Below are positions 35,200-47,365 of a DNA stretch of 64,000 nt, in pieces. Origin of the DNA: an uncultured Alphaproteobacteria bacterium. GTDB taxonomy: Bacteria > Pseudomonadota > Alphaproteobacteria > Rhizobiales > Kaistiaceae. Below the pieces are notes generated by a model. It had not been told where the DNA came from. It did not search any database and saw only the letters and a program-made list of their open reading frames with translations. The stretch spans positions 101,301 through 165,300 of the forward strand of contig CAVVOK010000010.1 of the NCBI GenBank assembly GCA_963749755.1. Direction: 5' to 3'. Made by a program: the position numbers and the translations under genes. Numbering within the stretch: the stretch's first letter is position 1; each line of letters starts with the position of its first letter.

Positions 35200-36080
35200 A
35201 TGGCGATCGCATCAGCGACCGGTTTTACTTGGCCGTGGCAGGATCGGCAGGCCCGGTTCTCGCCCCTGCGCGCCGGCGCGTTGGTCGTCGTGCTGCTACC
35301 GGCTGTCTCGATGCTTTTTGACCTCGCCTTCGGCTTCTATGGCGACATGCCCGTCCACGGGTTCCTTTATTGGTCCGGCATCTGGGCAACCGCCCTTCTG
35401 CTCCTCGTCCTGGCGGTGACGCCCGCGCGCACCATCCTGCGCTGGAACCGGCTGATCGCAGTCCGCCGTACCATCGGCTTGGCGGCGCTCGCCTATACGG
35501 TCTTTCACGTCGTCATGTACTTCGCGCTCGACTCCTGGAACTTCGCCCAGGTCGCCTTCGGAGATGGCGATGATCAGCGTCAACGTCATTGCCGCGACCG
35601 TATCGACCATCTTCCTCGTCGCGCTTGGTGCAACATCCTGCGACGCCGCCGTCCGGCGGCTCGGACCGAAGGGCTGGCAGCGGCTGCACCGTTTGGCATA
35701 CACCGCGACCGTCCTTGCCATCGTGCACTTCCTGCTATCGCGCGGCGTGTTCCCGGTCATGTACGTGTTCTCCGGCATTCTGCTGTGGCTGATGGCGTGG
35801 CGCGTGCTCGCACGTTACGGCCGCGGTGGCGACCCGCTGGCGCTTGGCGTCCTCACCCTTGCCGTATCGCTCGTCACGCTGGCGCTCGAGCCATGGTGGA
35901 CCTGGGCGCACCATGGCTTCGATCCGATCCTCACCCTCGGCGACAACCTCACCGGTTGCATACGGCCTCACGTCGGCTTGGCAGATCCTGATCAGCGGTC
36001 TCATCGTTACGGCCATCGCCGCGCTCGTCCGCCTCCGTTCGCGGACACCAACCGTTTCCCACGTCGCGCGAGCAAACTGA
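35200..36080 (+). pseudogene. MsrQ/YedZ-like ferric-reductase-type heme membrane protein, two frame changes
   Basis: Frame 1 runs ..RTIGLAALAYTVFHVVMYFALDSWNFAQVAF. After an extra G at 35560 it continues EMAMISVNVIAATVSTIFLVALGATSCDAAVRRLGPKGWQRLHRLAYTATVLAIVHFLL. A second shift near 35950 leads into ..AWQILISGLIVTAIAALVRLR-stop at 36080. No msrP partner is nearby. Confidence 0.6.
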
Positions 36081-36206
36081 GCCCGGCTTGCCCCGTCGGC
36101 TCCGCCCGCGTTAGGCTTTCCAAACGAGGCCACGCGCAAACGCGTGCAACGGCGCCGCGGGACCCCATCCGCACGCCCACCACCGACAACCATCATTGCG
36201 AGGGAC

Positions 36207-37388
36207 ATGGTAGGGCCGCGTATCTACAATCTCTTCCCGCCATTGGTCGGCCCCGTCCGCGAATGGTCAGCACACCTCGACCGCATCGCCGAGATGGGGT
36301 TCGACTGGGTCTTCGTCAACCCCTTCCACTAATCGGGTTTTCCGGCAGCCTCTACGCCGTCAAGGACTACTATCGACCTCAACCCGCTGTTGCGCGGCGA
36401 CGCGCGCAGGCCGATGACGACAGCCTGCTCGCCGGCTTCGTCGAGCCGGCGGCCGAGGCACGGCCTGTCGGTGATGATGGACCTGGTGCTCAACCACACC
36501 GCCAAGGACAGCCTGCTCGCGAGCAGCACCCGGACTGGTTCCCCCGCGAGGCCGACGGGACGCTCGATTCGCCCGCGCGGTCGACCCCGACGATCCCGAT
36601 GCCAAGGTCACAGTCTGGGGCGATCTGGCCGAGCTCGATTACTGCGAGCGCGCCCGAGCGCAAGGCGATCGTCGCCTACTGGCGGACGTCGTCGCGACAC
36701 TACGCCGGGCTCGGCTTCCGCGGCTTCCGCGCCGACGCCGCCTACAAGGTGCCGGCCGCCGTTTGGGCCGCGATCATGACGGCCGGCACGGGCCGCGCGA
36801 CCCCGCCGCTCACCTTTTCGCCGAGACGCTCGGCTGCCGCCCGCGAGCGAGGTGACGGCGCTGCACGATGCCGGCTTCGACTTCATCTTCAACAGCGCCA
36901 AATGGTGGGACTTCAAGGCGCCCTGGCTGATCGAGCAATACGAGATGTTTCGGCACATCGCGCCATCCATCGCCTTCCCCGAAAGCCATGACACGGAACG
37001 TCTGGCGACCGATCTCGCGCGCGAAGCGGCGTAACCGGACCCGGCCGACGTGGAGGCGATCTACCGCCAGCGCTATCTGTTCGCCGCCGCCTTCTCCACC
37101 GGCGTCATGATGCCGATCGGCTACGAGTTCGGCTTCCGCCGGAAGCTCGACGTGGTCACGACGCGCCCGACCGACTGGGAGGAGCCGCTGTTCGACCTCA
37201 CCGAGTTCATCGCCGATGCGAACGCCATGAAGCGCGACGCGCCGCCGCTGAACGAGGAAGGGCCGCAAATCTGGTGGCATCCGCGCGACTCCGGCGTGGT
37301 CGCCCTCGTTCGCCGCGCGGTCGGGGACGGTTGGGCGCTGACGCTCGTCAACCCCGACCGTGCGCATGGCCACACCGTCAGCGCCTGA
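36207..37388 (+). pseudogene. GH13 alpha-amylase-family protein, heavily frameshifted plus an in-frame TAA
   Basis: Conserved pieces appear in alternating frames: MVGPRIYNLFPPLVGPVREWSAHLDRIAEMGFDWVFVNPFH / GFSGSLYAVKDYY / LNPLLRGDARRP / HGLSVMMDLVLNHTAKD / AVDPDDPDAKVTVWGDLAELDY / GLGFRGFRADAAYKVP / FNSAKWWDF..FPESHDTERLA. There is an in-frame TAA at 37032, after which the frame continues as ..YLFAAAFSTGVMMPIGYEFGF. Confidence 0.75.
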
Positions 37389-45104: not shown

Positions 45105-45129
45105 CCGCCGCGCCCGATGAGGATGGACG

Positions 45130-47365
45130 GTGGTTGAAGATGCAAACGTGAGCGGAGACGCCGACCCCGTGACCGTCCCGACCGAGATGCACGTTCGGGC
45201 GCGGTCGCCCGTGTGGCCGGGCATCCCCTATCCGCTCGGCGCCACCTGGCCGATGCCCGCGGGGTCAACTTCGCGCTCTTTTCGGAGAACGCGGAGAGAG
45301 TCGAGCTGTGCCTGTTCGACGCGTCGGGCACGCGCGAGATGCGAGCGCATTCGTCCTCCCGGAGTACACCGACCTCGTCTGGCACGGCTACGTGCCGGGG
45401 CTCGCGCCGGGCCAGCTCTACGGCTATCGCGTATACGGCCCGTACGAACCCGCGCAGGGGCACCGATTCAACCCCAACAAGCTGCTGCTCGACCCATACG
45501 CCCGCCGTATCGCCGGCGACTTCCATTGGGACGACGCGGTCTATGGTTACACCGTCGGGCATAACGACGGTGACCTGTCGTTCGATAAGCGCGACAGCGC
45601 GCGCGTTCATTCCGAAGTGCCAGGTGATCGGCGGCGCGCTTCGACTTGGGAAGACGACGTGTCTCCGGGCCATGCCTGGACCGAGACCGTCATCTACGAG
45701 ACGCATGTGCGTGGCTTCACCATGCGCCATCCCGGCGTCGCCAAGCACCGCCGCGGCACGTTCAGCGGCCTCGCCGACCCCGCCGTCATCGCCTACCTCA
45801 AGGATCTCGGCATCACGGCGGTCGAACTGCTGCCGGTCCACGCCCACATCGACGAGGCGTTCGTCGTCTAGCGCGGGCTGGTCAACTACTGGGGCTACAA
45901 CACCATCGGCTTCTTCGCGCCCGAGCCGCGCTACCTCACCGACGGCGGCATCGACGAGTTCAAGGCGATGGTCAAGGCGCTGCACGACGCGGGCATCGAG
46001 GTCATCCTCGACGTCGTCTACAACCACACCGCCGAGGGCAACGAGCTCGGGCCGACGCTGTCGCTTCCGCGGCATCGACAACGCCTCCTACTACCGGCTC
46101 GATCCGGAAGACCGCGCGCTACTACCTCGACTTCACCGGCTGCGGCAACACGTTCAACCTGCATCGGCCCGCGCGTGCTGCAGCTGGTCATGGACTCGCT
46201 GCGCTATTGGGTCGAGGAGATGCACGTCGACGGGTTCCGCTTCGATCTGGCGACCACGCTCGCGCGCGGCCAGGACAGCGGCTTCGATGCCCAACGCGAG
46301 CTTCCTCGACGCGATCGGCCAGGATCCGGTGCTGGCGCCCGTCAAGCTGATCGCCGAGCCGTGGGACATCGGCGCCGGACGGCTATCAGCTCGGCAATTT
46401 TCCGCCGCGGCTGGTCGGAATGGAACGACCGCTACCGCGACGCCGTGCGTCGGTTCTGGAAGGGCGAGGACGGCACGATCGGCGAGACTGGCGTCGCGCG
46501 TGACCGGCTCCAGCGACATCTTCGATCGCCTCGGCCGGCGCCCGCTGCGCCAGCATCAACTTCATCACCGCCCACGACGGTTTCACCCTCACTGACCTCG
46601 TCAGCTACAACGCCAAGCACAACGACGCCAACCACGAAGGCAACCGCGACGGCTCCGACCAGAACCACAGCTGGAACTGCGGCGCGGAAGGCCCAACCGA
46701 CGATGCGCTGATCAATCGCCTACGCCGTCGCCAGCGCCGCAATTTCCTCGCCACCCTGCTGCTGTCCCAGGGCACGCCGATGCTGCTCGGCGGGCGACGA
46801 GATCGGCCGCTCCAAGGGCGGAAACAACAACACCTATTGCCAGGACAACGAGCTCACCTGGATCGACTGGGAAGCGATCGGCGACGAGGCCCGTTCGCTA
46901 CGGGATTTCGTCCGCCGTCTGCTTCAGCTCCGCCGCGACCACGTGGTATTCAGGCGGAGCCGCTTCTTCCACGGCGCGCCGACGCCCGGCACCGACGTCA
47001 AGGACATTACGTGGCTCCGCCCCGACGGCGGCGAGAAGGAACAGGCCGATTGGGAGGTGCCCTACGCCCGCTGCCTCGGCTTCGTGCTCAGCGGCGAGGC
47101 CGGCGCTTACCATCTGACCACCGGCGGCGAAGGCGAACCGGACGACACGTTTCTCGTCATCATGAACGCCTATCACGACGCCGTGCCTTATTGCCTCCCG
47201 TCGTTCGACTCCACCCTTGGGTGGGAACTCGTACTCGACACAGCCCGTGAAGACGGTTTCTCCGACGGCGAGCAATATCCGCCCGGCCACACCGTGTCGG
47301 TGAGCGAACATTCCATGATCCTGTTCATTCGGCGCGTCTCCGTCTCGCCATCGCCGGAGAGCTGA
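45130..47365 (+). pseudogene. glgX: glycogen debranching enzyme, about 13 frame changes plus an in-frame TAG
   Basis: The blocks are PYPLGATW / RGVNFALFSENAERVELCLFD / LPEYTDLVWHGYVPG..YGYRVYGPYEP..FNPNKLLLDPYA / TETVIYETHVRGFT / TAG at 45869 / RGLVNYWGYNTIGFFAPEPRY..VILDVVYNHTAEG / FRGIDNASYY / DGFRFDLA / KLIAEPWD / WSEWNDRYRD / [12 protein letters not shown] / [11 protein letters not shown]. The start is uncertain (GTG 45130 or ATG 45187). Confidence 0.85.

Follow-up and report, generated by a model that had tools for sequence, protein, structure and literature searches.

Dense single-base frame changes in two patches of an alphaproteobacterial GlgE-pathway locus point to errors in the assembled consensus

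The window analysed here, a 64,000-nucleotide stretch of contig CAVVOK010000010.1 from an uncultured alphaproteobacterium, contains a row of alpha-glucan genes that runs from glgE to a glucan phosphorylase gene and is preceded by a gene for an MsrQ-like membrane protein (Table 1). The row is syntenic with 80 related loci, and the gene order is the same as in related alphaproteobacterial loci. The GlgE pathway of alpha-glucan synthesis (TreS-Pep2, GlgE, GlgB) is characterised in mycobacteria and in Pseudomonas aeruginosa, and in Pseudomonas its genes have a two-operon layout. After frame correction the present locus is alike in having GlgE, a fused TreS-maltokinase and GlgB, with GlgX, MalQ, GlgA and glucan phosphorylase alongside. 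It differs in that its genes form a single row and not two operons, in that GlgE has an extra N-terminal GH13-like domain, as in three related loci (L001, L009 and L016), and in that four genes are unreadable as written. The set by which the pathway was recognised (GlgE N/S and C domains, fused TreS-maltokinase and GlgB) comes together only after read-through, since 59 frame changes interrupt the reading frames of the GlgE locus in its present sequence. At the downstream end, a frameshift suspected near 51620 at the start of glgP was rejected, the region being a separate small DUF2934 gene.

Table 1. Genes of the alpha-glucan locus and genes with isolated frame changes (window coordinates)
Gene	Coordinates	Strand	State of the reading frame
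frr (ribosome recycling factor)	2315..2864	-	one extra base, about 2622
rnj (RNase J)	15880..17570	-	+1 frame change at about 16000
nuoL	21284..23318	-	one extra base, about 22274-22290
MsrQ-like (ferric-reductase-like) membrane protein gene	35200..36080	+	2 frame changes, 35557 and about 35950
glgE (N-terminal GH13-like domain fused to maltosyltransferase)	36207..39592	+	19-24 frame changes
treS-pep2 (trehalose synthase fused to maltokinase)	39595..42877	+	one extra base, about 39969
glgB (branching enzyme)	42877..45104	+	17-18 frame changes in 43366-44857
glgX (debranching enzyme)	45187..47365	+	14 frame changes in 45249-46790, in-frame TAG at 45869-45871
malQ	47376-49625	+	no frame changes; end-to-end family match
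glgA	49790-51358	+	no frame changes; end-to-end family match
small DUF2934 gene	51325-51627	+	intact; family match end to end
glgP (alpha-glucan phosphorylase)	51563-53437	+	no frame changes; end-to-end family match
SQR-like (Type III sulfide:quinone reductase-like) gene	59538..60678	-	one extra base, about 59902

The first of two patches of frame changes begins inside the MsrQ-like gene, two ORF pieces of which match the MsrQ model at positions 6-99 and 118-190; read through, the protein matches Pfam Ferric_reduct at positions 1-120 of 121. The glgE gene, aligned in a frameshift-aware manner to loci L001, L009 and L016, is densely broken between 36329 and 38190 (ten changes within 36329-36840), and single changes follow at about 38968 and 39345. 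In these closest relatives the gene is one continuous reading frame of 1154-1192 aa, and the corrected protein has the architecture of the intact 1172-aa L001 protein, with matches to GlgE_dom_N_S (3-179 of 179) and GLGE_C (1-87 of 87). In treS-pep2 all five references put a single +1 change at 39966-39972, 375 bases into the gene, where patch 1 ends; the remainder (39970-42877) is clean, and the read-through protein matches the TreS model (921 bits; cut-off 678) and the maltokinase model (504 bits; cut-off 375), both from end to end. The start of glgB overlaps the treS stop (TGATG), and five references concur on the positions of its frame changes to within a few bases, about 14 of the 17-18 being single extra bases; the corrected protein scores 1038 bits against the GlgB model NF003811 (cut-off 741; positions 2-617 of 619). 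In glgX 12 of the 14 changes are single extra bases, on which four references concur, and the read-through product reaches 1056 bits against TIGR02100 (cut-off 641; positions 2-687 of 688). Patch 2 extends from a point some 490 bases inside glgB to one roughly 570 bases short of the end of glgX.

Frame changes were located with a purpose-written protein-to-DNA aligner that tolerates frameshifts, run with three to five orthologues per gene from related loci; 59 is the best estimate, with ranges given for glgE and glgB. About 59 changes lie between 35557 and 46790, or 5.3 per kb, in patch 1 (about 35557-39969) and patch 2 (about 43366-46790), against four in the remaining 52.8 kb of the window, or 0.076 per kb (binomial p = 7e-40). 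Between the patches, 3.4 kb of treS-pep2 is free of frame changes (P = 8e-12 were the patch rate to apply). Aligner calls that fell ahead of true starts (42875, 45208-45212 and 35988-36091) were discarded. Calls in the unconserved glgE linker (about 37265-37610), part of which is spanned by gap-free metagenome contigs, were dropped, and a compensated frameshift pair in treS (41494/41510), proposed by three of five references, was set aside as an alignment artefact in an unconserved linker.

These results bear out most of what the initial annotation had described by eye. It had reported an extreme local concentration of roughly 50 frame changes, with two in the MsrQ-like gene and one in treS, and these two counts stand. 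It had also placed 15 in glgB and 13 in glgX; the regions are as described, and the counts are higher, with the in-frame TAG of glgX in addition. Its eleven changes in a "GH13-like gene" and eight in glgE compare with 19-24 here, ten of them within 36329-36840, the two supposed genes being the single glgE frame described above. The claim of only four changes elsewhere holds for all four, and codon-usage frame segmentation of the whole window together with family scans found no more; orthologue alignment also agrees that treS-pep2 after 39970, malQ, glgA and glgP have none. The statement that most changes are +1 shifts, consistent with single-base insertions, applies to patch 2 (26 insertions and 5 deletions) and not to patch 1 (13 and 11), which has no insertion bias.

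Overall, insertions make up about 70% of the changes, nearly all are single bases, and homopolymer enrichment is absent, in that of eight extra bases verified in reads five lack an identical neighbour (background 58%). This spectrum does not resemble natural mutation, and a spectrum of the bacterial mutation type, deletion-biased and of mixed sizes, was not found. No deletion of more than two bases was found in the broken genes, and read-through leaves one in-frame stop codon only, the TAG in glgX.

The four isolated changes outside the patches are all +1 insertions, and are background errors of the same kind as in the patches. The pieces of frr, an essential gene, match model positions 3-81 and 75-176, and base 2622 is absent from a 151-base run X1 contig that has 0 mismatches over 150 bases, the sole indel seen across 20 kb of comparison with metagenome contigs. 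Similarly, the pieces of the SQR-like gene match positions 1-258 and 250-355, and a 323-base run X1 contig with 0 mismatches over 322 bases lacks base 59902, the sole indel across 17 kb. Because the extra bases at 2622 and 59902 are absent from mismatch-free contigs, the assembly contains false single-base insertions. In nuoL, the pieces of which match the NuoL model at positions 5-300 and 296-611, the local sequence reads GTC-G-CAA across the conserved LVQNDIKR motif. Owing to its frame change, rnj continues into the methylmalonyl-CoA epimerase gene (15459-15857), such that one 703-aa ORF matches the RNase J model at positions 3-498, followed by the entire epimerase model, and the RNase J C-terminus lies in a different frame. 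A selenocysteine codon in the SQR-like gene, suspected from the model name, was rejected, as the corrected gene encodes 379 aa and ends in TAG.

Further evidence comes from short metagenome contigs with 95-100% identity to the window, from sequencing runs found by searches with the clean flanks; a run search with patch 2 as the query returned no runs. Fragments fully (100%) identical to the window occur in run X1 and probably in X9, at a depth of only about 2x. All ten predicted sites covered by such contigs (2622, 35557, 38151, 38185, 38969, 43764, 44518, 46063/46064, 46792/46794 and 59902) show a frame-restoring indel, and none of the covering contigs crosses an agreed patch site without a gap. 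The frame of glgE is restored at three sites, and contigs are one base short at two sites in glgB and, in several runs, at two in glgX. Three of the frame-restoring contigs have 0 mismatches, at 2622, 35557 and 59902; that at 35557, a run X9 contig matching over 77 bases, is the sole mismatch-free cover inside the patches. Most of the others inside the patches belong to relatives with 95-98% identity rather than to the identical strain, and strictly demonstrate intact genes in close relatives only. In 37 kb of flanking sequence contig indels occur only at the frr and SQR-like sites. One contig indel, at 37823, falls off any predicted site, the nearest being 37781. The contigs mismatch the window at 1.9% in the patches versus 0.5%. 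Substitution error was rejected as the source of this excess, since 10 of 12 contig-window differences in patch 2 are synonymous, which indicates slightly diverged relatives and implies purifying selection on glgB and glgX in this lineage.

Among alignment columns conserved at 90% or more, the broken genes retain 97-98%, a share matched by real orthologues in leave-one-out comparison, and their identity to L001 is 65-69% versus 64% for the essentially intact treS-pep2. Relaxed constraint, sought as loss of conserved residues, in-frame stops and larger deletions, was not found beyond the one stop, and the read-through proteins match their family models; the initial annotation had called the fragments between the breaks strongly family-typical. 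The nearest genome locus, sought for base-by-base comparison, has a TreS identity of 61-63%, and the best database protein reaches 67%.

In light of these findings, the frame changes are very probably errors in the assembled consensus and not mutations in the organism, in which the GlgE-pathway alpha-glucan locus (glgE, treS-pep2, glgB, glgX, malQ, glgA and glucan phosphorylase) is most probably intact and ordinary. The patches are physical rather than functional, because patch 1 starts in an unrelated gene, both patches stop mid-gene and the 3.4 kb between them is clean; moreover, frr, nuoL and rnj are broken as well, regardless of function. Two stretches of the contig would carry about one wrong single-base indel per 100-150 bases, mostly inserted bases, and the rest about one per 13 kb, most likely because only a handful of noisy long reads went into these stretches or because polishing missed them. 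The initial annotation had offered two explanations, neither chosen, and is in that sense partly supported: its option of two patches of poor consensus is favored by the covered sites that are intact in near-identical contigs, by the frr insertion and by the disregard of gene boundaries.

An artefact of other origin, in which the genes are again intact, is possible though rather unlikely. The consensus of two co-occurring strains may have been collapsed or mixed, or the sequence wrongly "corrected" with reads of related organisms, misaligned variants becoming indels. Many related populations do co-occur, with contigs at 95-98% and also at 100% identity to the window in the runs, and conserved GH13 regions draw very deep heterologous coverage, one such region (43517-47023) coinciding with patch 2. 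However, heterologous coverage is low over the densest part of patch 1 (36329-38190) and high over the clean treS part (39509-41011), so that the correlation of coverage with the patches fails, and heterologous coverage was rejected as the cause of the patches, since it suits patch 2 but not patch 1. Nor does the corrected protein have a substitution mosaic.

The other option of the initial annotation, recent indel-driven inactivation, would mean that this strain truly carries some 59 indels as very recent, strain-specific pseudogenes of the GlgE pathway. The breaks do lie mainly in genes of one pathway, and the frame-restoring contigs in the patches derive mostly from slightly diverged relatives, which do not strictly exclude a private change. 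This option is nevertheless improbable. Bacterial pseudogene decay is deletion-biased, and 59 indels are normally accompanied by several hundred substitutions, stop codons and larger deletions, which are not seen; the insertion-rich changes come without loss of conserved residues. In addition, the changes spare 3.4 kb of treS-pep2 in the same operon and yet affect an unrelated gene upstream, an insertion of the same type disrupts essential frr but does not occur in reads of the identical strain, and the first break of the cluster is missing in a mismatch-free contig. Genuine decay in reductive genomes, for example that of Mycobacterium leprae, is alike in leaving several frame disruptions per gene with homology still recognisable. 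In real decay, which follows functional units, conserved sites are substituted, stop codons appear and multi-base deletions arise, in contrast to what is seen at the alpha-glucan locus. Still less probable is that the indels are real and reflect a localised burst of single-base insertion mutagenesis in two 3-4 kb tracts of one strain, for example through grossly error-prone repair synthesis, too recent for more than a very few substitutions to have followed. Biological recoding, in which programmed frameshifting or RNA editing of the deletion type would restore the frames in the RNA or the protein, can be dismissed for practical purposes: the well-conserved peptide fragments are its one support, there are dozens of sites without a common motif or slippery sequence, the differences are at the DNA level between near-identical genomes, and we know of no such system in bacteria.

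Consensus error has precedents. Gene-fragmenting indel errors in long-read or low-coverage assemblies have been described for the Kastor tool (PMC12007338), and the present changes are alike in that single-base indels split intact genes into pseudo-pseudogenes, with a tiny share of bases and a large effect on gene calls, and in that they vanish once independent reads are consulted. They differ in density, which in two patches of 3-4 kb is about 70 times that of the remaining sequence, and, whereas published assembly-error profiles are dominated by homopolymer-linked deletions (PMC12007338), insertions dominate here and homopolymers are uninvolved. An insertion-rich, homopolymer-independent profile is unusual for polished Nanopore or HiFi consensus, and the two patches differ in their insertion-to-deletion ratio; both observations weigh against consensus error.

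Recognition of the pattern, namely insertion-rich breaks of one base each that are grouped in physical patches, with conserved residues preserved and essential genes affected in other places, allows such loci to be flagged and polished rather than interpreted, and is of importance chiefly for data quality. If taken at face value, the contig would suggest recent loss of the GlgE alpha-glucan pathway in an alphaproteobacterium, and would yield an inflated pseudogene count and truncated database proteins, as has already occurred with the window's called TreS protein, a truncated form of 904 aa.

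Frame changes are extremely concentrated in the alpha-glucan locus, as the initial annotation had claimed (5.3 per kb against 0.076 per kb elsewhere; p = 7e-40). A dynamic-programming protein-to-DNA aligner, which allows frame changes at a penalty and was run with three to five orthologues per gene from related loci, gives a best estimate of 59 in 11.2 kb, rather than the approximately 50 counted by eye. They lie in two patches, about 35557-39969 and 43366-46790. The references agree closely for glgB and glgX, and the range for glgE reflects uncertainty in an unconserved linker. 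The genes read as unbroken by eye are so: frameshift-aware alignment to orthologues found no change in malQ or in treS-pep2 after about 39969, and glgA and the phosphorylase cover the full length of their family models. At the patch rate, the 3.4 kb of treS-pep2 that separates the two patches would be free of changes with a probability of 8e-12. The supposed excess of +1 insertions holds for the second patch (insertions to deletions, 26:5) but not for the first (13:11).

Features of the window, with frame changes and sites at which metagenome contigs restore the frame
Feature	Position	Strand	Remarks
frr	2315-2864	-	one extra base, 2622
RNase J/methylmalonyl-CoA epimerase ORF	15459-17570	-	703 aa
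rnj	15880-17570	-	one extra base
nuoA-N	18317-32785	-	complete complex I operon
nuoL	21284-23318	-	one extra base
Ferric-reductase-like (MsrQ-like) gene	35200-36080		family matches; 2 frame changes
glgE	36207-39592	+	with N-terminal GH13-like domain; 19-24 frame changes
treS-pep2	39595-42877		between glgE and glgB; 1 frame change, ~39969
glgB	42877-45104		after treS-pep2; 17-18 frame changes, 43366-44857
glgX	45187-47365		after glgB; 14 frame changes, 45249-46790
malQ, glgA, small DUF2934 gene, alpha-glucan phosphorylase			3' of glgX, in that order
DUF2934 gene	51325-51627	+	between glgA and phosphorylase
Sulfur-oxidation-type row	59006-63985	-	DUF1641 protein, SQR-like gene, TusA x2, DsrE-like x2, GcvH/LbpA-like, CCG-domain (HdrB-like)
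Type III SQR-like gene	59538-60678	-	one extra base, 59902
Restored site	35557		contig with 0 mismatches
Restored site	38151		contig has added T
Restored site	38185		contig indel
Restored site	38969		contig has added C
Restored site	43764		contig indel
Restored site	44518		contig indel
Restored site	46063/46064		contig indel
Restored site	46792/46794		contigs from four runs

The four breaks noted outside the patches are all real in the sequence, and codon-usage frame segmentation with further family scans found no others in the window. For frr, nuoL and the SQR-like gene, the two fragments of each fit successive parts of a single family model; the rnj C-terminus lies in another frame, so that the ORF continues into the gene that follows, a join that an annotator could take for a gene fusion. 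All four are +1 insertions, as are the majority in the patches. About 16 public metagenomes (soil, salt marsh, wetland) carry the organism or close relatives at ~2x depth, and their contigs were aligned with the window, the minimum identity being set at 94-97%. Over 37 kb of flanks they show indels only at 2622 and 59902, precisely the breaks in frr and the SQR-like gene; both contigs are from run X1 and match the window without a mismatch, over 150 and 322 bases respectively. Clean sequence is covered by about 55 other full-length contigs, all gap-free. Since the extra base is absent from 100% identical contigs at both sites, there is a contig-wide background of insertion errors, of about one per 13 kb.

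Of the two explanations first offered, poor consensus or recent inactivation, assembly artefact is by far the best reading of the 59 changes, which belong with gene-fragmenting assembly errors and are not a biological feature. The assembly demonstrably has false single-base insertions, one of them in the essential frr. The patches are also physical: the first starts in an unrelated gene and stops 375 bases into treS-pep2, and the second starts and stops mid-gene, with 3.4 kb of the same operon untouched between them; neutral decay of inactivated genes would have hit that stretch too. Bacterial mutation is deletion-biased and of mixed sizes, whereas the patch indels almost always involve one base, are rich in insertions and show no link to homopolymers. 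That the indels are genuine and stem from a local burst of insertion mutagenesis is very improbable. Moreover, 59 indels are normally accompanied by hundreds of substitutions, which are not evident. The patches may derive from a low number of noisy long reads, from failed polishing or from the collapse of strains. They do not have the published long-read error profile, mostly homopolymer deletions (PMC12007338).

Inactivation lacks signs of decay. The fragments had looked family-typical, and the proteins, when translated across the breaks, give full-length matches to their family models, above the cut-offs (in bits, cut-off second: GlgB 1038, 741; GlgX 1056, 641; TreS 921, 678; maltokinase 504, 375), the N/S and C domains of GlgE being complete as in the intact protein of L001, a related locus. 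Aligned with 35-80 orthologues, the corrected proteins retain 97-98% of columns at least 90% conserved, against leave-one-out values of 96.6-97.6% for real orthologues. Identity to L001 is 65-69% for the broken genes, 64% for the essentially intact treS-pep2 and 50% for intact MalQ. The orthologue alignment proposed as a check showed no loss of conserved residues. The corrected genes have no deletions of more than 2 bases and a single in-frame stop, a TAG at 45869-45871 in glgX; Q or E stands at this position in orthologues, and the surrounding stretch is without frame changes. The TAG is probably a substitution error. The genes are not decaying, and old pseudogenes are excluded; constraint data alone do not reach very recent ones.

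Every agreed patch site covered by a metagenome contig shows a frame-restoring indel in that contig, and gap-free contigs inside the patches are confined to stretches without a change predicted by concordant references. The exception is a contig of run X2 (at least 94% identical), which lacks a base at 37823, whereas the nearest predicted site is 42 bases away (37781); either the aligner misplaced the true site, conservation being weak there, or a diverged homologue gave rise to the contig. Most contigs over patch sites are 2-3% divergent from the window; of 12 such differences in the second patch, 10 are synonymous, which indicates slightly diverged relatives with glgB and glgX under purifying selection. 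These contigs prove that close relatives are intact, which is not strict proof for the sequenced strain; identical-strain evidence comes from frr, the SQR-like gene and 35557, the last from run X9, in which ten control contigs match the window exactly. Fragments 100% identical, at ~2x depth, occur in a 2024 soil (X1) and a 2020 salt-marsh (X9) metagenome, and runs from wetland, rhizosphere and wastewater contain relatives at 95-98% identity. The organism is rare, though widely distributed.

Beneath the frame changes lies a standard alpha-glucan cluster of the GlgE pathway; such clusters have been studied in mycobacteria and Pseudomonas. The GH13-like domain of ~450 aa (hDGE_amylase / Alpha-amylase matches) was initially listed apart from glgE; both parts do contain frame changes, but the nearest relatives (L001, L009, L016) encode them as one ORF, of 1154-1192 aa. 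The halves are separate ORFs in L024 and L027, the latter a metagenome-assembled genome that may have frame errors of its own. The nearest loci are from Rhodospirillales-type genomes, with TreS only 61-63% identical to that of the window. The protein database has the window's TreS in truncated form, at 904 aa. The DUF2934 gene overlaps both called ORFs beside it; its coding signal first looked like a further frameshift and is a separate small gene. The G+C content of the window is 61-72%, and the sequence appears alphaproteobacterial. Apart from the extra base in nuoL, the complex I operon is intact. The sulfur-oxidation-type row resembles sHdr-LbpA clusters.
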